Shown here piece by piece: positions 2-32,630 of a stretch of DNA of 64,000 bases; positions within the stretch are counted from its first letter, which is position 1; the number at the start of each line of letters is the position of its first letter. The notes beneath the pieces were generated by a model. That model was not told the origin of the DNA and did not search any database. It was given only the letters and a program-made list of their open reading frames with translations. This DNA is from Candidatus Marinacidobacterium sp. Its GTDB lineage: Bacteria; Acidobacteriota; Vicinamibacteria; Marinacidobacterales; Marinacidobacteraceae. Where the stretch lies: NCBI GenBank assembly GCA_965220965.1, contig OZ244852.1, positions 2,720,001-2,784,000 of the forward strand, written 5' to 3'. A program made the translations under genes and the position numbers.

Positions 2-1303
2 TACGTCCAGGACAGCCTGGTTCGGGGACGCCTCGCGCTCGATGTCGGGCTCCGCGCCGACTGGTGGAACGCCGGCTACCCCGACCAGACGAACCGGCCC
101 GGACCGTGGAGCGAGGTCTTCGCCGGGTTCGGGCGGCCGGGCGAAGTCCCCGCCCGGAATGATGTGGTGCGCTGGTTCGGGCTCGCGCCGAGGCTGGGCG
201 CGAGTTACGACCTGACCGGGGACGGACGCACGCTGATCCGGGTCAGCGCCGGGCGCTACCTGCACCAGGTGGGCGTCAGCGTCCCCCAGTTCGCGAACCC
301 GAATGCGCTGGCGCGGGCGATCTTCCGGTTCGAGGACCAAAACGGCGACCAGCTCGTGGATCCCGGCGAAGTCGACTTCTCCCGGCCGCTGAGCGTGTTC
401 CTGCCGCGGGAGAACGAGGTGGACCCGGACCTGAAGCAGCCGGTCACCGACGAGGTCACCCTGGGGCTCCACCGGGAGCTCCCCTGGGGAATCGCCGTCG
501 GCCTCACCGGGATCCTGCGGCGGGAGCGCCATCTGATCGAGGACATCGACGTCGGCGTCCCGGATTCGGCCTGGACCCCGGTTCCGCACCTGGATCCGGG
601 CCGGGACTTCGTGCGCGGGTCGGAGGACGATGCGCCGTGGACGCTTTGGGTCCAGGATCCGGCGACGCTGGGCCAGAGCCGGTTCCTGCTCACGAACCCC
701 GGGATCGGGTCGAGCTACCGGGGGGTGATCGCGGAGGCGAGAAAGCGCTACGCGAGCGGCTGGCAGCTCCTCGCCTCGGTCACCTGGAGCCGGTCCATCG
801 GCTGGCTGTCGGGTCCCGGCGAGGAGACCACGGTCGGGACCGGGTTCGCCGACATCCTGTTCAACAACCCGAACCACCGGGAGTTCCACGAGGGCCGGAC
901 CTTCTGGGACCGACCCTTCCTCGCCCGGGTCTCGGGGAGCGCGCGCCTTCCCTGGGGGCTGTCGGCGGCGGCCTCGTTCCGGGCGCATTCCGGCTGGCCG
1001 AACTACCGGACGGTCATCTTCACCGAAACGCTCGAGGGAGACCCGTTGCCGCAGGGCGCCACCGAGGTCGTCGTCGAGCCGCCGGGCGCGGCCCGCTCTC
1101 CGGCCGTTCCGCTGCTGGACCTGCGCCTCGATCACCGGCTGAGCCTGCCGGGAGCCGTCGAGCTCTCGACCTACCTCGACGTCTTCAACGCCCTGAACCT
1201 GAACAGCGTCATCGGGGAGGGCTCGCGCGACGACGGGTTCGGGGCGGTTGTCGGCATCCTGCCCCCCCGGGTGGCGCGTCTCGGGGTCCGCGTCCGCTTC
1301 TGA
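2..1303 (+). CDS. TonB-dependent receptor-like outer-membrane beta-barrel, C-terminal part (5' truncated by window edge)
   Basis: Frame is open from base 2 (YVQDS..LDVGLRAD); PRLGASYDLTGDGRT, LDLRLD, DVFNALN and C-terminal PRVARLGVRVRF (terminal Phe) are typical of Oar-like TBDRs. Confidence 0.85.
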   Translation, partial: YVQDSLVRGRLALDVGLRADWWNAGYPDQTNRPGPWSEVFAGFGRPGEVPARNDVVRWFGLAPRLGASYDLTGDGRTLIRVSAGRYLHQVGVSVPQFANPNALARAIFRFEDQNGDQLVDPGEVDFSRPLSVFLPRENEVDPDLKQPVTDEVTLGLHRELPWGIAVGLTGILRRERHLIEDIDVGVPDSAWTPVPHLDPGRDFVRGSEDDAPWTLWVQDPATLGQSRFLLTNPGIGSSYRGVIAEARKRYASGWQLLASVTWSRSIGWLSGPGEETTVGTGFADILFNNPNHREFHEGRTFWDRPFLARVSGSARLPWGLSAAASFRAHSGWPNYRTVIFTETLEGDPLPQGATEVVVEPPGAARSPAVPLLDLRLDHRLSLPGAVELSTYLDVFNALNLNSVIGEGSRDDGFGAVVGILPPRVARLGVRVRF

Positions 1304-19717: not shown

Positions 19718-21255
19718 GCGCGCCCCGGGCGAGCCTCGCCGAGCGGCTGGCGAGAAGCCGGGCGCGGGTCGTCGATTCCCCGGCAAAGCCGGATTCCTCC
19801 CCGGCAAAGCCGGATTCCTCCCCGGCGAAGCCGGATTCCCCGGCAGAGCCGGGTTTCGTTGCAGAGCCGGATTTCGTAGCAAAGCCGGATTCCGTCAACG
19901 CGCCGGTTTCCTCCGGCCCGCCGGTTTCCTCCGGCGCGCCGCCGCGGGCCGGGCGGCCGGACGGCGGTCCGCAGGATGAGGCCGGGCGTCGGCTGGCGCG
20001 CCTGGAGCAGGCCCGCCGGCTGCTGCGCCAGACCGAGGACCGCTGGAAGCGCTCCGTCCGGGAGCGGCCGGTGACCGCGCGCCCCCCGGCCGCGCCCGCA
20101 GTCCCGGTCGGCCCGGCGGTCCGGGAGCCCTTCCGGCGCGAGGACCACGAGTTCCCGCTGGACTCGGACTACGCCGGGGGCGCGCTCGGGCGACTTCCGC
20201 TCGTGAGCCCGGAGCTCGCGGCGCGGCTGAATCTCCAGCCGGACGAGCCCGGCGTGGATCTCGGCCGAGCGGTCTTCGTGGATACCGAGACGAGTGGTCT
20301 GGCGGGTGGGACCGGGACCTTCGCGTTCCTGATCGGCGCCGGCTGGGTCGAGGACGGCCGGTTCCGGATCGCGCAGTTCCTGCTGCGCGACCCCTCGGCC
20401 GAGCGCGCCATGCTGGAGTCGTTCGCCGGTCTGGTGGACGCCGGGCGCGACCTCGTGACCTACAACGGAAAGTCCTTCGACGTCCCTCTGCTGGAGACCC
20501 GCTTCGCGCTGAACGCGCTTCCGGCGCCGTTTCGGCGCTCGGCGCACCTGGATCTGCTGCCTCCGGCGCGCCGCCTGTTCAAGCCGGGTCACGAATCAGC
20601 GAAGCTCGGCCATCTCGAGCGGAGCGTGCTGGGGGTGGAGCGCGACGACGACATCCCGGGCGCCGGGATTCCCCAGGTCTTCTTCGAATTTCTCCACGCC
20701 GGCCACCACCCGCTGATGAAGTCCGTCCTGTCGCACAATCGCTACGACCTGCTGACTCTGGCCGCGCTCGCGGTCCGGGCCGCGGAGCGCCTCGAGGACG
20801 ACTGGGACAGCGAGGACCCGGCGTCGCTCCACGGCGTCGGCGACCACCTCTGGAGGCGCGAGGAGTCCGAACGCGCCGTTTCGTTCCTGGAGCGCGCGCT
20901 CGCCGCCGGGCTGGGGGGCCGCCTCCGCGACCGCTGCCTCCTCCAGCTCGGCGAGCACTGGAAGCGTCTCGATCGCTGGGATGCGGCCTGCGACCTGTGG
21001 GGCCAGGTCGCGGACCTCGACATCCCCGAGCGCCTCGACGCCCTCGTCTGGTTCGCGAAGCACGAGGAGCATCGTCGGGGCGACTTCGGCGCCGCGCTAC
21101 TCCATGTCGAGGACGCCCTCGAGCGCCTCTCCCGCGTCCCGCTGCGTCCCGAGCGCCTGCGCGCCTGGCGCGAGTCCCTCGACCATCGCGCGGCCCGCCT
21201 CCGACGCCGCGCTGGCGAGCAGGGCTCTCCGGCGGCGGAGCGACGCGCCGGGTAG
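19714..21255 (+). CDS. RNase H-like DEDD exonuclease with TPR-like C-terminus (MrfB/YprB-like)
   Basis: GTGA overlap with the helicase; VFVDTETSGLAGGTGT, TYNGKSFDVP, HLDLL, DDIPG, HNRYDL. Confidence 0.88.
   Translation: MSAPRASLAERLARSRARVVDSPAKPDSSPAKPDSSPAKPDSPAEPGFVAEPDFVAKPDSVNAPVSSGPPVSSGAPPRAGRPDGGPQDEAGRRLARLEQARRLLRQTEDRWKRSVRERPVTARPPAAPAVPVGPAVREPFRREDHEFPLDSDYAGGALGRLPLVSPELAARLNLQPDEPGVDLGRAVFVDTETSGLAGGTGTFAFLIGAGWVEDGRFRIAQFLLRDPSAERAMLESFAGLVDAGRDLVTYNGKSFDVPLLETRFALNALPAPFRRSAHLDLLPPARRLFKPGHESAKLGHLERSVLGVERDDDIPGAGIPQVFFEFLHAGHHPLMKSVLSHNRYDLLTLAALAVRAAERLEDDWDSEDPASLHGVGDHLWRREESERAVSFLERALAAGLGGRLRDRCLLQLGEHWKRLDRWDAACDLWGQVADLDIPERLDALVWFAKHEEHRRGDFGAALLHVEDALERLSRVPLRPERLRAWRESLDHRAARLRRRAGEQGSPAAERRAG
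19774..19935 (+). repeat. In-frame degenerate tandem repeat (21/18-bp units) in the exonuclease 5' region
   Basis: ccggcaaagccggattcctcc-type units encoding DSPAKP/DSSPAKP/FVAEP, followed by ccggtttcctccggc twice. Confidence 0.85.
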
Positions 21256-25738: not shown

Positions 25739-26245
25739 GTGCCGGATCCCACCCTGCCCCGGAAGCCGCCGCCCCTGCGCCTGACCCGGGCGCCCGCCGT
25801 GACCGAGGCGGAGCGCCGGCAATTCGAGGCGGCCGTGGCGGATACGCCGTTCCACCCCTCACCGGGAGTGCTGGCGGCGCTGGCGGCGCGCGAGGGGGCG
25901 AGGCGCCCGGTCACGTCGCCCCATGCGCTGTTGCGTGATCTGCAGGCGGGCCGGCGACGGGTGGCGGACGATTGCGAGATCTCGCTGCGGCAACGCACCC
26001 AGGCCGAGGCGCGGGATCTCCTCGAGGGGTTCCTGCGGGCGCGACGGGTGGCGGGGGCGCGTTTCGTGCGGGTGATCCACGGCAAGGGCTACGGCTCGCC
26101 CGGCGGGCGCGCGGTGCTCGCGCAGCGGGTTCCCGAGTGGCTCGCGGCGTGGAAGCCCGAACTGGTGACGGCCTGGGGCGAGGCGCGGCGGGAGGACGGC
26201 GGGTCCGGGGCGCTCTACGTCGTGCTGGCCGGTTCGGAACGCTGA
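25739..26245 (+). CDS. Smr/MutS2 domain endonuclease
   Basis: [16 protein letters not shown] and DGGSGALYV Smr motifs. Confidence 0.9.
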
Positions 26246-26290
26246 CCGGCGAAACGAACCGCCGGGCGCGCCACGCCTAACATTGGCGCC

Positions 26291-27694
26291 ATGAGTGACA
26301 CCCGCGAATTCCTGGACCGGTTCTGGGAGGAGGAAATCCTCCCCTCGCTGAGCGAGTACATCGCGGTCCCGGCGGTCTCCGTGCTGTTCGACGCCGACTG
26401 GGAAGCCAACGGGCACATGGAGGCGGCGCTCGGGCTCGCGACCGCCTTCGTCGAGAAGCATGCTCCGGACGACGCCACGCTCCACGTCGGGCGGATCCCG
26501 GGGCGGACCCCGCTCCTGCTGCTCGACTGCCCGGGCGAGGCCGAGGGCTCGATCCTGATGTACGGCCACCTCGACAAGCAGCCGGAAATGGTCGGCTGGC
26601 GCGAGGGTCTCGGCCCCTGGTCGCCCGTGCGCGAAGGCGACCGCCTCTACGGCCGCGGCGGGGCCGATGATGGCTACGCGCTCTATGCGGCGCTCGCGTC
26701 GCTCAAGGCGGTCGCCCGCGAAGGAAAGAAGCGGGCCCGGGTCCTCGTTCTGATCGAGTTCTCCGAGGAGAGCGGATCCCCCGACCTGCCCGCCTACATC
26801 GAGGAGTTCGCCGGGGTCATCGGCAGCCCCGACCTCGTGATCTGTCTCGATTCGGGGGCCGGGAACTACGACCAGCTCTGGTCCACCAACTCGCTGCGCG
26901 GCATCGTGGGGGGGACGCTGCGGGCCGATGTGCTCACCGAGGGCGTCCATTCCGGGGATGCGGGCGGGGTCGTTCCCACGCCCTTCCTCGTGCTCCGGAA
27001 GCTCCTCGACCGGCTGGAGGACCCGGCGAACGACCGGATGACCCCTCCGTCCCTCCACGTCCCGATTCCGGAGCAGCGGATCGCGCAGGCGGAGGCCGCG
27101 GCCGAGACGCTCGGCCCCGACGCCTTCGACCGGTTTCCCTGGGTCGAGGGCTGTGGTCCTGCGAACCTGCCGATGCGCGACCTGATCCTGAACCGGACCT
27201 GGAGGTCGAACCTGGCGATCACCGGCGCGGGGGGGCTGCCGCCGGTCGAGAAGGCGGGGAACGTCCTGCTTCCGCAGGTGACGCTTAACTTCTCGATCCG
27301 CATGCCGCCGACGTCGGACCCTCACGCCGTCCAGCGCGAGATCCGCGACCTGGTGGAGAAGGATCCGCCGTTCGGGGCGAAGGTGTCCGTCCACTTCCAC
27401 GAGCCGGCGCAGGGATGGAACGCTCCGCCGCTCGCGTCCTGGCTGGACGAGGCTCTCGACGAGGCCTCGAACGAGGCGTTCGGGAAGCCCGCGATCCACA
27501 TGGGTGAGGGCGGCTCGATCCCGTTCATGGCGATGCTCGGCGCCCGGTTTCCGGAGGCGCAGTTCGTGGTGACCGGCGTGCTCGGTCCCGGTTCGAACGC
27601 CCACGGGCCGAACGAGTTCCTCCACGTGGCCTACGCCAAGCGCCTGACCGGGGCGGTGGCCACCGTGATCGCCCGCCACGCCGAGCGCGCCTGA
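26291..27694 (+). CDS. M20/M25/M40 metallopeptidase (dipeptidase-like)
   Basis: [42 protein letters not shown]. Confidence 0.95.
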
Positions 27695-27740
27695 CCGGCC
27701 TCCCGGGACACTCCGCTCCGGGACATTCATGGAATGCCGT

Positions 27741-27770
27741 TTGCTTGGTTCGGTTCCGAGCGCATAACGT
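27741..27770 (+). promoter_or_regulatory. Putative sigma70 promoter for the poly-GD/hydroxylase pair
   Basis: TTGCTT-N18-TAACGT in a relatively AT-rich intergenic stretch. Confidence 0.4.
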
Positions 27771-27950
27771 GAGGCCGGGAAGAACGTGAGACCGGGAAGG
27801 ATGATGCCGCCGAGGCCGAAGCAGTCGTTTTCTGTTCCGGCGGGAAGGCTGTGCGCCCCGCGCGAGGGAGACTGGCGCAGGTCGGCCCTCGATCCCCGGA
27901 CGAGGGCGTCCGGCGCCGGATCAGCCTCGGACCCCTTCGGAGCGGCGGAC

Positions 27951-28649
27951 GTGGGACTCCCGCCGCGCTCGATCTGGCGCGCGCTGGTGGCGTTGCTGAT
28001 CCTGTTGGCCCTCGTCAGTTGGAGTTGCGCCGTTGACGGGAATCCGTTGGCGCCGGCGACCCCGACGCCCGCGAACCGGGCGGCGCTGCTCGCCGGCTTC
28101 GCCGCTGGCGGCGGGGATGGGGACGGCGACGGCGACGGTGATGGCGATGGCGACGGAGACGGGGATGGCGACGGAGACGGGGACGGGGACGGTGATGGCG
28201 ATGGAGACGGCGACGGCGATGGGGATGGAGATGGGGACGGCGATGGCGACGGGGACGGCGATGGAGATGGGGACGGAGACGGGGACGGCGATGGAGATGG
28301 GGACGGAGACGGGGACGGCGATGGCGACGGTGATGGCGACGGCGACGGGGATGGCGACGGGGACGGGGATGGCGACGGGGACGGGGATGGCGACGGCGAT
28401 GGAGATGGCGACGGCGATGGAGATGGCGACGGCGACGGAGATGGCGACGGCGACGGGGATGGCGACGGAGACGGGGACGGCGACGGCGATGGAGACGGGG
28501 ACGGCGACGGAGACGGCGATGGTGACGGGGACGGCGATGGAGACGGGGACGGCGATGGTGACGGGGACGGCGATGGTGACGGGGACGGCGACGGCGACGG
28601 GGACGGTGATGGCGACGGCGATGGGGATGGAGACGGCGACGACTGGTAG
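27951..28649 (+). CDS. Exported, possibly lipid-anchored (Gly-Asp)88 repeat protein
   Basis: GTG start 8 nt after GGAG (alternative starts 27786/27802); signal [19 protein letters not shown]; short linker, then (GD)88-D-W-stop. Confidence 0.75.
28113..28640 (+). repeat. 528-bp hexamer repeat (GGN GAY)88
   Basis: Only third codon positions vary (ggc/ggg/gga/ggt; gac/gat); no indels and no GAR codons. Confidence 0.97.
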
Positions 28650-28664
28650 CGACCTGCCGGGCGG

Positions 28665-29465
28665 TTGGTCGCCGCGGAACCAGGGAGCGGCGCTCCGGCG
28701 CTGGACCACCCGGCGGACACCGGCGCCCGGGAAGGGCGTTCCCCCTCGCCTTTCCTGACCCGGGTGCTCAGCGCCGCGCTGTTCCGTCGGCTCAAGCGAC
28801 GACGCGCTCGTCCCGACGACCCCGCATCAGCCCCGCCGCCAGGGGATTCCCCGAATTTCCTCCGGATCGCTCATGGGATCGATGTGTCGCCGCTGCTTTC
28901 GGAGGTGGCGGCGGCGCCCGACATGTGGCATGCCGACACCAGCCGGCAACGGAAGGTCCGTTGCCAGCGCGACACCCTGAACATCTTCCTGCGCGTGGCC
29001 CGGAAGCCCCTTCCTCCCGGAGCGAAGAACGCCAACGATGTCCATGAGAGCCGGACCGCCCGGTCGGCGGCCATGTTTCCGCGCGCCATGTCCTTCTGTC
29101 GGGAGCTCGCCCGGTCCCGGCGGGCCGAATTGGGCCGCGCCACCCTCGTGTGCCTGAGGCCGGGCGGCTGGGTGCGGCCCCACGTCGACGCCGGCGCCTA
29201 CTACCGGATCCGGGACCGCTTCCACCTCGTCCTGCACAGCCCGGGCGGCAGCCCGCTGACCTCCGGCGGGGACAGCGTCGTGATGCGCGAGGGCGAACTC
29301 TGGGTGTTCAACAACAAGGTGGAACACGAAGCGCGGAATCCCACCGGGGAACCCCGGGTGCACCTCATCTTCGACCTGCTGCCGGCGCCCGGAAGCGGCT
29401 GCTACGCGGCGCTGGCCGGGGAGGCCGGCGCCCGCAGCAGCTTGACCGCCGCGGCCAGCGCGTGA
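28665..29465 (+). CDS. Aspartyl/asparaginyl beta-hydroxylase-family 2OG-Fe(II) dioxygenase
   Basis: [12 protein letters not shown] (HxD), [26 protein letters not shown] (distal His), PRVHLIFD (2OG-binding Arg); start uncertain. Confidence 0.85.
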
Positions 29466-30988
29466 GCGGCTGAATCCAGCCGCACCGTGTTGTCGTACGC
29501 CTCGGTGCGCAGCGCGCCCAGGACGCGATCCGGCCGCGAGACGTAGAACGCGTCGGTCTGGTCGCGGAACTGAAGCTGACGCAGCGAGCGTAGTCCGCGC
29601 CGGATCGCGCGTTCGTAGGCGTCGGCCCGGGCGCCGTCGCCCAGCCCCCGGGCCAGCGTCCGGGCGTCCGCCAGCCCCTCCAGATAGGCGCCGGTCGAGG
29701 CCGCGTGCGGCGGTCCGAAGTCGGGTCGCCGCGGGTTGTAGAAGCGCCCCCACAGGTCGGGCGGCAGCTTCCCCCACTGCTGCATCGGGAGGAGCCAGTC
29801 GCTCATCTCCAGCGCGAACTCCGCGAATTCGCGGCGGCCGGACTGCTGGAACAGGGAAACGCACGCCTGCGTGTGCCAGGGGACGAACGCGGGGTTGCGG
29901 GCGCGCCGATGCCGGTCGCGGCAGCGCTCGAAAGCGGCGGCGCAGCGCTCGAGCGAGGGCGCTCCCGGCATCCGTCGGCGCCGGGCCTCCGCCTGGAAGA
30001 GCAGCGCCTCTCCGGAATAGAAGTTCCAGTTCTGCCCTTCGCGCTCCGGGGGGAAGAAGAACGTGCGGAACCCCTCGCGCTCGTCCTCGAGCGAAGCGAT
30101 GCCCCGCGTGAGCATCTCCAGTTCGGAACCGAACTCGCCGGCCGATGGACTCTCCAGGATGGCGAGCGCGGCGAGCGCGGCGGCGCCCAGCTTGGCGCCG
30201 GTCGGCTCCACGATGGCGCCGCGCCCCTCGCCGATGTTCCGGAAGTACCGCTTCAGGTTGAAGCGCAGGTTGCGGCGGGCGGCCTCACGGATTTCGGCGC
30301 TTCCCCGAAACTCGCCCAGCCGCGCCAGCGAGAGGGTCGCGAGGAATCTTCGAATCGCGTTGTCGGCCTCGGACTCCGTTCCTCGGCTCGGCCAGTACTT
30401 GTAGGGCAGCGAGCCGTCAGCCGACTGGTTGCGTAGCATCCACCGGGAGATGCCCTCCGCCAGCAGGCCGGCGCGGTCTTCGTCGGACGCCGGTTCCGGA
30501 GGAACGAGCGTCGCGCCGCGATGGAGCTCCGTCACGTTGCCGGCGCCTCCCGCGACCAGGAACTGTCGGGCGTCGAACGCGCGCAACCTGCCGTGGACGG
30601 CGAACTCCTCCCGGCTTCGGTTGCGCTTCTCGAGATAGCGCTCCAGCGCCCGCTCGAAGCCCAGATTCCCGGCGATCATCCGCGTCGGCGCGATCCGGAA
30701 CGCCTCGCCACGATCCACGATTTCCATGCCGAGCAGCCCGCGCGCCCGGTGGAGGAAGACCCGGCGCTCCCGCTCCGGCGCCACCGGACGCGGCGCCTCG
30801 GCGAGGCAGACCTCGATGACTTCGCCGGGTTCCGCTCCGACCCGGCGGGACAGGTCATCGAGGCCGGCGCCGGGAATCCAGCCGCTGCGCCGGGCCCGGC
30901 CGCCCCTTCGGATGCAGAACCAGGTGGAGGCTCCGCGCTGGGCCGGCTCCTTCACCGGATCCTCCCGGCGCCGGTTCCCCGTGGTCAC
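29402..30988 (-). CDS. Uncharacterised protein: degenerate AMMECR1-like N-terminus plus alpha/alpha-barrel-like domain
   Basis: RGLLGMEI..F..FDA N-terminal region; [64 protein letters not shown] helical repeats. Family assignment recalled, not searched. Confidence 0.6.
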   Translation of the reverse strand: MTTGNRRREDPVKEPAQRGASTWFCIRRGGRARRSGWIPGAGLDDLSRRVGAEPGEVIEVCLAEAPRPVAPERERRVFLHRARGLLGMEIVDRGEAFRIAPTRMIAGNLGFERALERYLEKRNRSREEFAVHGRLRAFDARQFLVAGGAGNVTELHRGATLVPPEPASDEDRAGLLAEGISRWMLRNQSADGSLPYKYWPSRGTESEADNAIRRFLATLSLARLGEFRGSAEIREAARRNLRFNLKRYFRNIGEGRGAIVEPTGAKLGAAALAALAILESPSAGEFGSELEMLTRGIASLEDEREGFRTFFFPPEREGQNWNFYSGEALLFQAEARRRRMPGAPSLERCAAAFERCRDRHRRARNPAFVPWHTQACVSLFQQSGRREFAEFALEMSDWLLPMQQWGKLPPDLWGRFYNPRRPDFGPPHAASTGAYLEGLADARTLARGLGDGARADAYERAIRRGLRSLRQLQFRDQTDAFYVSRPDRVLGALRTEAYDNTVRLDSAAHALAAAVKLLRAPASPASAA

Positions 30989-31016
30989 GGCGCCTGCGGG
31001 TTCCGGACTTCCGGGG

Positions 31017-32630
31017 TCAGTCGGGGGCGCCGACCAGAATCCCCGAGGGCGTGGACGCGGCGGCGTCGCCGTCCGCCGGCGCCCGGATCGGCCGGTCCCG
31101 CTCGCTGTCGACGACGCACAGGAAGCCGAACGGCTTCTTCGTCCGGTTGACGAGCTGATGGACCTCCAGCGGGCCGACGGTGGCCAGATCGAGCGGCCGG
31201 AGCGGCATCTTGCGTTCGCCGACCTGAAGCACCCCTTCCCCCCGCGCGCCGATCACCACATGGGTGTGGACGTGTCGCTCCAGGCTGGTGTAGCCCCCCG
31301 GCTCGACCTCGAAGTAGCGGACGTGGCAGCGGGTCCGTTCACCGAACTTGCCGACCAGCTCGACCCGCCGCACGCCCCGGAACGCGAGATCGGTCGCGTC
31401 CTTGTAGGGCGAACTGGCGCGGCCCTCCCATTGCCCGTCGCCCAGGAACGCCAGCCGGCGCGGCCCGGGAAGTTCGGGCGGCAGGGCGGGCTCCGGCGCG
31501 ATCGCGACTTCGGGGAATTCCTCCCGGAGAGCCCCCAGCAGTTCCCGCGTTCCGGCTTCCACCCCGGCGGGATGGGTCAGGAGGGCGCCGCCGATCAGCA
31601 GCACCGAGTCCGGGCCGTAGCGGCGGGCGACCTCCGGGACTTCGGCCACCCCCATGCCTCCCGCCGGAGCGGGCCACGCCGGGGCCAGACTCCCGAGGTC
31701 GGTCCGCAGCGCCCGGACGATCGAGTCGCACGCCGCCTCCGGGTAGCGAAAGCGGCCGCCGCGGTCCGGGAAGACCACGACATCCGCGCCCGCCAGCCGG
31801 AAGAGCGTCCCGAGCAGCACTCCCGCGTCCATGCCCCCGGGGTCCCCGTGGGTCGCGGCGCCGGTGAGCGACGGGTGCGCCATGAAGATGAGCGGGTACC
31901 GCGCCGCCAGGTTCCGGACGGCGTCGAGGCCGACGAGCATCGGGCAGACGAGGACGCCGGGGAGCCCCGCCTCCGCCACGAACTCGACGTACCGCTCGAT
32001 CCGGTCCGCCGGAGCGCCGGCGTGCGGCAGATAGAGGGTCTGGCCGCCAGTCGCCTGGTTTCCCCGATCCACCGCCTCGGCGCAGGTCGTGACGCGCGTC
32101 CGGAACGCCTCGAAGTCGTCGGTCAGGTTCTGGTCGTCCTTGACCAGGTCGCCGCCGCCCCGGGCGAACCCCTCGGCGATGGCGGCCAGTTCCTCGTTCG
32201 ACAGCCCTCGCGGCTTCACCGCGGTGGCCAGCAGCGGCCGCCCCAGGACGCCGCGCTGTCGCCGGACCCCCTCGACCCCGTGGTTGGGCCCCCGAAGGTC
32301 GTTCAGGAGCGAGGCGGGCGGTTCCAGCTCGAGGAGCCGGACCCCCGGGAACATCGAGACGTTCCCGAACGAGACATTCAGCAGCCCGAAGAGGTCCGCC
32401 GCCAGCTCCGCCGGGTAGGACAGCTCCACCCGGGAGGCCTCGGGCGCCTCCGGGTCCGCGGCGATCGCTTCGATGCGGCCGACGAGCTCTGCCGAAGGGC
32501 TCCCGGCGGGAAGCAGCGCTTCGGGGACCTCGACCGTCTGTTCGATCGCGATCCGGCGGGCGGACGCCTCGGCGTCCGCCTCCGCCGCCGGGATCCGGTA
32601 GACCGCCCGGAGCCGGTCCTCGGTCAGCAA
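31017..32630 (-). CDS. RuBisCO-like protein (form IV) fused to a C-terminal cupin
   Basis: IAIEQT, FGNVS, RPLLATAVKPRG, GGGDLVKDDQ, MAHPS, RLAGAD, PAPAGG, LLIGGAL; cupin YFEVEPGGYTSLERHVHTH..HQL..GFLCVVDSERDRP. Confidence 0.9.
   Translation of the reverse strand: MLTEDRLRAVYRIPAAEADAEASARRIAIEQTVEVPEALLPAGSPSAELVGRIEAIAADPEAPEASRVELSYPAELAADLFGLLNVSFGNVSMFPGVRLLELEPPASLLNDLRGPNHGVEGVRRQRGVLGRPLLATAVKPRGLSNEELAAIAEGFARGGGDLVKDDQNLTDDFEAFRTRVTTCAEAVDRGNQATGGQTLYLPHAGAPADRIERYVEFVAEAGLPGVLVCPMLVGLDAVRNLAARYPLIFMAHPSLTGAATHGDPGGMDAGVLLGTLFRLAGADVVVFPDRGGRFRYPEAACDSIVRALRTDLGSLAPAWPAPAGGMGVAEVPEVARRYGPDSVLLIGGALLTHPAGVEAGTRELLGALREEFPEVAIAPEPALPPELPGPRRLAFLGDGQWEGRASSPYKDATDLAFRGVRRVELVGKFGERTRCHVRYFEVEPGGYTSLERHVHTHVVIGARGEGVLQVGERKMPLRPLDLATVGPLEVHQLVNRTKKPFGFLCVVDSERDRPIRAPADGDAAASTPSGILVGAPD

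Follow-up and report, generated by a model that had tools for sequence, protein, structure and literature searches.

A conserved three-gene module in Acidobacteriota and Proteobacteria couples a predicted exported Gly-Asp repeat protein with two candidate tailoring enzymes

We analysed a 64,000-nucleotide (nt) stretch of DNA (hereafter the window; contig OZ244852.1, positions 2,720,001 to 2,784,000; G+C content 71.0%) from the 3.25-Mb, two-contig genome of Candidatus Marinacidobacterium sp., and concentrated on a gene that encodes a protein with 88 uninterrupted Gly-Asp (GD) dipeptides. This gene belongs to a compact module of three, comprising the GD gene itself (gene 1), a gene for a PF05118 2-oxoglutarate (2OG)/Fe(II) oxygenase on the same strand (gene 2, the hydroxylase) and a convergent gene for a protein with a predicted (α/α)6 barrel (gene 3, the barrel protein). 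The closest homologues of the module genes are found in Vicinamibacterales/Acidobacteriota records, and the same combination recurs in Alphaproteobacteria and Gammaproteobacteria. With a confidence that is slightly better than even, we propose that the module makes an exported, enzyme-tailored polyanion.

Results

GD tracts, the hydroxylase and a third gene are kept together in distant bacteria

A preliminary description of this DNA, made from its letters alone, had read the GD gene and the hydroxylase as a two-gene precursor-modifier cassette and had set beforehand, as a test, that homologues of the hydroxylase should be associated with comparable open reading frames (ORFs). We collected, from a scan of one genome per species, 40 loci whose hydroxylase is 56-77% identical to that of the window. 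They belong to Vicinamibacterales and other Acidobacteriota, Bryobacterales, Alphaproteobacteria (Defluviicoccus, Thalassobaculaceae), Gammaproteobacteria/Pseudomonadales and Immundisolibacterales. Results showed a tract of at least five GD units in 39 of the 40 loci, in Acidobacteriota as well as in Alpha- and Gammaproteobacteria, with a length of 5 to 182 units (median 69). The tract was located directly upstream of the hydroxylase and on its strand in 33 loci, with no more than 379 nt between it and the conserved core of that enzyme, and was otherwise found on the same strand further off (two loci), upstream on the other strand (three) or downstream (one). The tract-less locus (L031) carries a DDE transposase ORF at the usual place of the GD gene (L031:2552-3613, plus strand; PF01609, 3e-28; DUF4372, 1e-28), and its GD gene was probably displaced or destroyed by insertion. 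Among 61 related genomes, five, including that of the window, contained strong hydroxylase matches; a GD tract lay beside the hydroxylase in the four other strong-match relatives (4/4) and in none of seven loci with weak matches only.

The association announced by the preliminary description was thus recovered, while its restriction to two genes was not, because a third, convergent gene proved to be equally conserved. When the 40 scan loci were taken together with the four loci of the relatives (44 loci; at least two of the 40 coincide with the relatives' loci L005 and L006), a homologue of the third gene with 57-73% identity was present in 43, the sole miss being a contig that ends just past the hydroxylase. 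Within the 61 relatives, the third gene occurred in exactly the five genomes carrying the close hydroxylase, and its distribution was patchy, with 2 of the 16 members of one genus carrying it. Two flanking genes, encoding an M20 peptidase (26291-27694) and a RuBisCO-like/cupin protein (31017-32630), were considered as further members and rejected, each being found beside the module in 0 of the 44 loci. The latter gene, on the minus strand, encodes 537 amino acids with a RuBisCO large-chain catalytic domain (2.7e-23) and a C-terminal cupin (2.5e-8), and looks like a fused RuBisCO-like protein. No protease, transporter, TonB receptor or lipid/sugar pathway gene was conserved across the loci; only the three genes are kept.

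For an examination from the side of the tract we used one fixed, evenly drawn set of 401 Acidobacteriota genomes. Six of them contained the enzyme pair, three of these being places already counted, and all six carried the adjacent tract (6/6). A DNA pattern for (GD)8 matched eight genomes, of which six were exactly those with the enzyme pair, where the module gave 41-81 overlapping matches per genome; the remaining two held one perfect GGCGAT microsatellite and one single 8-unit match, and the reversed control pattern matched one genome. The microsatellite (G074:C33:243688-243783), a perfect array of at least 16 units in a genome without the enzyme pair, is unlike the codon-diverse tracts of the module. 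We also observed that the GD tract is cut by a contig boundary in L003, L006, L018, L020, L040, L047, L052 and several metagenome loci, and that masked runs lie inside the tract in L024 and L037. The module is probably undercounted in draft genomes, because short-read assemblies break at GD tracts.

The GD tract belongs to a protein-coding gene with a signal peptide

The features of the module are listed in Table 1. Every descriptive detail first reported for gene 1 was borne out on reanalysis, namely a signal peptide ending in Cys, a 28-residue linker, 88 uninterrupted GD units and a terminal Asp-Trp before the stop codon. A GGAG sequence is located 8 nt 5′ of the GTG start codon, and the hydrophobic core of the signal peptide has a mean Kyte-Doolittle value of 3.43. 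A canonical [IVA]-A-S-C box occupies the place of the window's Cys26 box in acidobacterial relatives, and relatives share a P-L-x-P-T-x-P motif at the position of the linker.

Table 1. Coordinates of the three-gene module and its parts, in window positions
Feature	Position	Strand	Description
Tandem 17-nt unit, two copies	27766-27799	+	some 150 nt 5′ of gene 1; 94% matches (Tandem Repeats Finder)
GD protein gene (gene 1)	27951 (GTG)-28649	+	232 amino acids, net charge -87
Signal peptide of GD protein	27951-28028	+	basic n-region (two Arg), 12-residue hydrophobic core, ends at Cys26
Linker	28029-28112	+	28 amino acids (residues 27-54), Pro/Ala/Thr-rich, between Cys26 and tract
(Gly-Asp)88 tract	28113-28640	+	residues 55-230, uninterrupted, followed by Asp-Trp and stop
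PF05118 2OG/Fe(II) oxygenase (gene 2)	28665-29465	+	largest ORF (266 amino acids, TTG start); 233 amino acids from GTG 28764
Basic block of hydroxylase	28935-28994	+	20 residues, 7 Arg/Lys, near-invariant
Catalytic motif His140-x-Asp142, His188, Arg198	29181-29357	+	numbering from 28764; invariant in 23/23 aligned sequences
Third module gene (gene 3)	29402-30988	-	528-amino-acid basic protein, net charge +18, pI 10.3, convergent with hydroxylase
3′-end overlap of the two convergent enzyme genes	29402-29465	.	64 nt
Predicted six-hairpin (α/α)6 barrel of third protein	29429-30481	-	residues ~170-520; AlphaFold2 (AF2) model
Predicted N-terminal α/β domain of third protein	30509-30931	-	residues ~20-160; AF2 model

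A repetitive tract of this kind could be no gene at all, being either a hexanucleotide microsatellite or the shadow of an ORF on the opposite strand. Indeed, the minus strand of the tract reads as a perfect (SP)n frame (GGN-GAY reversed gives TCN-CCR), the high G+C content gives long spurious ORFs, and a GGCGAT microsatellite does exist in G074. We therefore analysed codon usage along the tract. All four Gly codons (GGC 39, GGG 26, GGA 16, GGT 7) and both Asp codons (GAC 55, GAT 33) are used and no exact DNA repeat inside it exceeds 47 nt, so that the tract is perfect as a protein but imperfect as DNA; Tandem Repeats Finder described it as units of 18 and 30 nt with 81-85% matches. For an (SP)n gene, all 88 Pro codons would have to be CCR and no Ser codon AGC or AGT, events with probabilities of about 1e-18.6 and 1e-13.4, respectively, as computed from the codon usage of four neighbouring genes. 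Such a frame would also hold 33 CCA codons, a codon that accounts for 2 of the 135 Pro codons in those four genes, and its ORF (25859-28795) would traverse the M20 peptidase gene. The codon pattern, which fits GD and not SP, together with the signal peptide and linker conserved in the plus frame of other genomes, led us to reject both a plain microsatellite and a minus-strand (SP)n gene; the tract is moreover kept through 39 loci, and the probability that gene 1 is not real is in our view negligible. In the 3.25-Mb genome, the pattern for at least six GD units gave 83 overlapping matches, all inside this tract, and the reversed control gave none.

Several database matches of the GD protein were examined and discarded. 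A Pfam match to TrAA12 (2.1e-14) is a low-complexity artefact, the profile stretch of about 381-447 matching every GD tract tested. PF22807 (TrAA12-like) scored all tested GD tracts, with E values from 2.1e-14 to 8e-4 and some above the gathering cut-off, and proteins with GD tracts may be mislabelled TrAA12-like by automatic annotation. The NCBIfam models of ClfA/B and SdrC/D matched the repeat only, by way of their SD regions, with 66-71 bits against cut-offs of 999-2500; an MSCRAMM identity was rejected, and the GD proteins are on these scores not related to those adhesins. The Pfam search found no PF00353 RTX nonapeptide repeats in the GD protein of the window.

Regarding the region upstream, the 16-nt core of the tandem 17-nt unit is present at only these two places in the window, where 0.22 were expected. 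This repeat may have a regulatory role, and whether it should be counted with the module is uncertain; as a conserved operator it was rejected, the core being found, among 160 loci, only in those of this same genome. A promoter shared by genes 1 and 2, which had been considered plausible, was not recovered, since a scan of positions 27600-31200 gave no promoter-like and no terminator-like sites, a result of little weight because the scan covered the sigma-70 consensus only. The sequencing runs matched to the window comprised one run with the DNA, probably from the source sample, and none with RNA data. Elsewhere in the window, a tandem repeat with an 18-21-nt unit (19774-19893; 6.3 copies, 82-97% matches) is followed by a short array (19901-19941).

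GD tracts are carried by several kinds of predicted exported proteins

What the GD proteins of the different loci have in common is the tract alone, often with a poly-Asp run, and it can be carried in proteins of up to ~950 amino acids. We distinguished four architectures. The first comprises the lipobox proteins of Acidobacteriota, with their [IVA]-A-S-C box and Pro-rich linker, and a similar box is present in two alphaproteobacterial loci. Proteins of the second type, from Proteobacteria, have one N-terminal transmembrane segment and a conserved C-terminal motif; those of the third type are large and start with an N-terminal signal; and in the fourth type, devoid of hydrophobic segments, the tract is followed by RTX repeats. 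Altogether, 31 of the 35 GD ORFs with a visible N-terminal part had a hydrophobic export-type segment, and the other four (L014, L016, L019, L050) showed, by eye, RTX-type repeats after the tract, which PF00353 matched in both proteins tested (L014, 8.9e-64; L019, 1.3e-85). Judging from these signals, all forms of the GD protein look exported, by different routes. In the GD protein of the window's nearest relative (L022:2956-3849, plus strand), the lipobox is followed by (GD)58 and a C-terminal stretch that matches a bulb-type lectin domain weakly, under the cut-off (PF01453, 4.9e-5), a layout that would make the tract a stalk.

The diversity of carriers bears on the RiPP-like (ribosomally synthesised and post-translationally modified peptide) character that had been attributed to the module. 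In such a factory, the 88 core units would be hydroxylated and cut into small β-hydroxy-Asp chelators; a repeated core with an adjacent modifier would suit this purpose, and β-hydroxy-Asp is an Fe(III) ligand in siderophores. The loci do not sustain this attribution, as none of the required accessory genes (protease, transporter, TonB receptor) is conserved, no recognition element was found by Pfam, export signals are of several kinds and the tract often lies within large secreted proteins, RTX proteins among them. We consider a peptide factory quite improbable.

Gene 2 is a complete PF05118 oxygenase with a conserved basic block

Gene 2 encodes a sound member of PF05118 with complete metal and 2OG motifs. 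Its product scored 65.5 bits against the family (cut-off 22.6; E 6.7e-18), as expected for a 2OG-Fe(II) oxygenase with the HxD...H...R residues already recognised in the preliminary description, and PF05118 was found in all 120 listed homologues. Arg198 lies ten residues past the second His. The only other Pfam match was a weak one to Cupin_2, and no TPR domain was found in the 266 amino acids. The reported position of the hydroxylase, downstream and on the same strand, stands, whereas the 15-nt distance to the GD gene holds only if translation starts at TTG 28665 and becomes 114 nt with GTG 28764. Since homologues have 192-241 amino acids and the alignment with them begins at residue 56-65 of the long ORF, GTG 28764 is at least as likely a start.

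The AF2 model of the hydroxylase, with a mean predicted local distance difference test score (pLDDT) of 78.7, is a double-stranded β-helix. Its nearest structures by Foldseek were L-proline cis-4-hydroxylase (4p7w, 7.7e-9), human AspH (5apa, 5.8e-8) and a nucleoside-antibiotic hydroxylase, with 16-19% identity, and the prolyl-hydroxylase structures 5c5t, 4iw3 and 4j25 were also among the fold matches. Links at the sequence level were weak (4p7w, E 0.098; NCBIfam models of LpxO, E 0.0058, and of a nonproteinogenic-amino-acid hydroxylase, the two spanning E 0.006-0.009). Within the basic block, 15 of the 20 positions were invariant in 23 of 23 homologues and two more were at least 90% conserved, and we propose that this block would serve as a docking site for a polyanion. 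The net charge of the hydroxylase was positive (+1 to +13) in 23/23 homologues. The cytoplasmic location assumed for the enzyme agrees with the absence of a signal peptide, and an N-terminal hydrophobic segment was found in 0 of 120 close homologues; lacking such a signal, the hydroxylase would act before export.

Gene 3 encodes a basic protein with a predicted six-hairpin barrel

Gene 3 is present in a single copy in the host genome, and the tail-to-tail layout of the two enzyme genes is also seen in L022 and L041. The AF2 model of its product (mean pLDDT 85.5; predicted template modelling score 0.88) consists of two domains. For the barrel, a Foldseek search yielded 63 chains at E ≤ 0.001 with a target-normalised template modelling score of up to 0.73, a similarity at the level of the fold only. 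The matches were generic six-hairpin proteins with 9-20% identity, including squalene-hopene cyclase, GH76 and AGE-type epimerases (E 8.5e-7 to 1e-4) as well as unsaturated glucuronyl hydrolase. Sequence and profile searches gave no Pfam, NCBIfam or PDB match, and a match to NAT_N (0.0027; 8 of 32 members), being below the cut-off, was set aside. As for the N-terminal domain, PF01871 (AMMECR1) matched in none of 32 third-protein members with E values up to 5. In a distant relative, the N-terminal part just before the barrel matches PF01871 at 1.8e-16, and hhalign aligned the barrels only; AMMECR1 is found in 12-13% of the members of Atlas clusters, and the N-terminal domain alone gave no usable Atlas match. 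An AMMECR1-like N-terminal domain could not be shown by these comparisons and is only a lead.

The barrel protein was basic in all 32 homologues examined (net charge +6 to +24). The two unconserved neighbour proteins, by comparison with the basic enzymes, have pI values of 4.9 and 5.3. No N-terminal hydrophobic segment was seen in the 120 closely related third proteins examined, and within the module export signals are carried by gene 1 alone. Relatives of the third protein are numerous: a word-indexed search returned more than 1,100 proteins, and a profile search among 1.84 billion cluster representatives returned 1880 representatives at E ≤ 0.001, 458 of them at E ≤ 1e-30.

The barrel family is fused to the hydroxylase and meets GD tracts without it

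We surveyed the domains of the 32 longest (at least 643 amino acids) among 150 listed representatives of the barrel family, the other 118 being left out. Seven were fused to PF05118, four to Mur-ligase middle and C-terminal domains, three to PGA_cap, one to ATP-grasp/RimK and one to a methyltransferase plus an FAD-binding domain. The barrel-hydroxylase fusions occur in both domain orders, and one of them (P0301) is 47% identical to the hydroxylase and 44% identical to the barrel protein of the window. The fusion of the two genes speaks for a joint action of the barrel protein and the hydroxylase. A distant barrel relative with 31% identity (L069:1383-3980, plus strand) was found fused to a B12-binding radical SAM protein (PF04055, 9.7e-12; PF02310, 8.2e-7).

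A scan seeded with five of the fused proteins provided 80 metagenome loci whose barrel is 32-48% identical to that of the window. A tract of at least six GD units was present in 31 of these loci; by locus length, the share was 15/28 at 9 kb or more, 12/33 at 5-9 kb and 4/19 below that. The hydroxylase, searched with a profile built from the homologue alignment, was found in seven loci, always fused to the barrel and in each with the GD tract just upstream. The other 24 loci with a tract combine barrel and GD tract without a hydroxylase. In a FastTree phylogeny of 112 rows (109 distinct), the 32 rows with an adjacent hydroxylase, that of the window among them, and the 7 rows with a fused one each formed one well-supported branch, and the hydroxylase-free GD loci were scattered, with at least nine changes forced by the starred branches. 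These results indicate that GD tracts go with the third gene more generally than with the hydroxylase, which, because 24 loci pair barrel and tract in its absence, is an add-on of one clade rather than the defining modifier.

Some further arrangements were observed in this sample. A PGA_cap-like membrane protein, recognised from motifs by eye, adjoins 5 of the 80 loci. In L149 (positions 2-331, plus strand), a (Glu-Gly)110 tract stands in place of GD at the start of a contig, upstream of a barrel-family gene and with the ORF start beyond the contig; it may represent a Glu-based version of the system. Beside the fused barrel-hydroxylase genes of L144 (3588-3923) and L160 (2385-4139) there are ORFs with long poly-Asp runs and a gene that looks, by eye, like one for a sensor histidine kinase, in which Asp/Tyr repeats make up an acidic stretch; an ORF family of ~236 amino acids common to seven loci may be the response regulator of that kinase.

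Discussion

The arrangement that best explains these data would work as follows. The product of gene 1 would be exported and probably lipid-anchored at Cys26, its sole long feature being a disordered polyanion of 88 Gly-Asp units. Genes 2 and 3 would supply cytoplasmic, strongly basic enzymes, for both of which the GD tract is very probably the common client before export. Gene 2 would most likely hydroxylate the β-carbon of Asp, many times along the tract, a step for which we hold the arguments to be about evenly balanced. Gene 3, the older and more general GD partner, would bind the tract and perform a second step of unspecified chemistry. The final product would be a surface-tethered acidic polymer, probably holding Ca2+ or other metal cations, or a protected acidic stalk; a Ca2+ setting is suggested by the RTX fusions in relatives. 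The formation of β-hydroxy-Asp, the binding of Fe or Ca and the mineral nucleation put forward at the outset are inferences. Our overall confidence, slightly better than even, combines the high one in the client relation with the evenly balanced one in β-hydroxylation.

Several observations weigh against this tailoring module. The box preceding Cys26 (S-W-S-C) departs from the lipobox consensus L-[AS]-[GA]-C and is non-canonical in a signal peptide that is lipoprotein-like overall. Related genomes are non-independent samples and several loci are duplicated. The link between the barrel family and GD tracts is not universal, because 49 of the 80 metagenome loci have no tract in the DNA examined, among them 14 near-identical sequences that form one tight clade, and several of the tract-less loci are long (12-14 kb) and without an acidic low-complexity ORF. 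An N-terminal hydrophobic segment is present in 46 of 150 wider-family representatives, and some have a lipobox or transmembrane segment of their own, so that in some members the function of the barrel would be independent of cytoplasmic cofactors. Finally, relatives in PF05118 and the closest folds act on free proline, on a nucleoside and, in AspH, on protein Asp, and membership of the family therefore leaves the substrate unfixed.

The observations on the barrel family open the way to its main competitor, in which the barrel protein would itself carry out the defining, cofactor-free change on Asp-Gly bonds (succinimide/isoaspartate formation, epimerisation or cleavage), giving a non-standard backbone on which hydroxylation is a decoration of one clade. 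No other sequence forms succinimides as readily as Asp-Gly. The hydroxylase-free GD loci, spread over many tree branches, would be accounted for in this way, members predicted to be extracytoplasmic fit cofactor-free chemistry, and the fold is in common with isomerases, epimerases and hydrolases. Set against these points, catalytic residues could not be assigned, no sequence or profile link leads to a characterised enzyme and the protein may only bind the tract; we rate this possibility as unlikely, and yet as the strongest of the rivals.

The breadth of PF05118 leads to another, in which the tract would be a passive, unmodified acidic stalk or Ca2+ spacer and the enzymes, merely co-located with it, would act elsewhere in the envelope, for instance on a lipid, a sugar or a free amino acid. 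PF05118 includes hydroxylases of lipid A and of free amino acids, in line with the weak LpxO matches and the 4p7w fold match, six-hairpin folds usually act on sugars, and in L022 a lipobox precedes the tract and a weak lectin-like domain follows it. Mere co-location is however difficult to reconcile with flanking genes that vary, as the M20 peptidase and RuBisCO-like genes do, with a tract that tracks the enzymes across four architectures and at least three bacterial classes, with the uniformly basic character of both enzymes and with the lack of any conserved lipid or sugar pathway gene nearby. We regard it as rather improbable, and keep the three-gene tailoring module as the preferred explanation.

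A broader interpretation can be outlined, as a speculation that we would hold only tentatively. In it, (GD)n tracts would be the ribosomal backbones of an unrecognised class of tailored acidic biopolymers, with the barrel family paired or fused to varied enzymes according to lineage. Its partners (PF05118, Mur-ligase, ATP-grasp ligases, PGA_cap, radical SAM, methyltransferase) might remodel the Asp-Gly chain by β-hydroxylation, backbone isomerisation or cyanophycin-like side-chain ligation, and the resulting extracellular material might bind cations or control mineral formation.

If the three-gene tailoring module is true, a compact gene set, probably spread by horizontal transfer, would in at least three bacterial classes convert a genetically encoded dipeptide repeat into a modified surface polyanion. 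Protein-bound, poly-site Asp hydroxylation would be added to bacterial biology, a large orphan barrel family would gain its first functional handle, and ribosomal repeat proteins would be linked to the enzymology of poly-amino-acid capsules. For studies of metal binding or mineralisation, the module would also provide an acidic polymer whose length is defined and can be programmed genetically.

The preliminary description knew of no described system of this kind, and our search of the literature, mostly open-access and in part available only incompletely, likewise found no GD dipeptide tracts with a hydroxylase or with the barrel family. Several known systems are nevertheless comparable in part. 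RTX (GGxGxD) proteins are Gly/Asp-rich, secreted and Ca2+-binding, and RTX repeats follow the tract in four relatives, but the window protein is without PF00353 and a strict dipeptide repeat cannot form the nonapeptide β-roll. Poly-γ-glutamate (CapB/CapA) and cyanophycin are likewise polyanionic amino-acid polymers, either exported or stored, and share domain types with our system through the barrel fusions; to judge from their family names only, the fused Mur-ligase, PGA_cap and ATP-grasp domains may make such polymers. Here, however, the backbone is ribosomal and the window module contains no ligase gene. In collagen-like (Gly-X-Y)n proteins with viral and bacterial prolyl 4-hydroxylases, a 2OG oxygenase performs many hydroxylations along a Gly-rich repeat, but on Pro instead of Asp, with an oxygenase of another subfamily and for a triple helix, not a polyanion.

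Human AspH shares with gene 2 the PF05118 domain and the double-stranded β-helix (5apa, 6yyy and others), and its substrate is protein-bound Asp. Identity is nonetheless 17-19%, the window enzyme (233 amino acids) has neither TPR nor membrane anchor, and a disordered repeat would take the place of the disulfide-defined EGF loop, the neighbouring GD repeat having no Cys pairs such as an EGF-consensus substrate would have. AspH uses two His only, while the window enzyme has the full HxD...H triad.

By analogy, the nearest concept is that of the staphylococcal serine-aspartate repeat (SDR) adhesins. There, SdgA and SdgB bind and glycosylate the Ser-Asp repeat, protecting it from proteolysis (PMC3794999), and the tailoring of SDR adhesins is also the subject of a second article (PMC8561734). 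Both systems would involve a long X-Asp dipeptide repeat, an exported surface protein and dedicated cytoplasmic modifiers. Unlike Ser-Asp, GD has no hydroxyl that could be glycosylated, the partners are a 2OG oxygenase and a protein of a family without known function in place of glycosyltransferases, and the hosts are Gram-negative environmental bacteria. The logic of a repeat protein with dedicated tailoring enzymes is already known from such systems, while the core barrel enzyme family of the GD module is uncharacterised.

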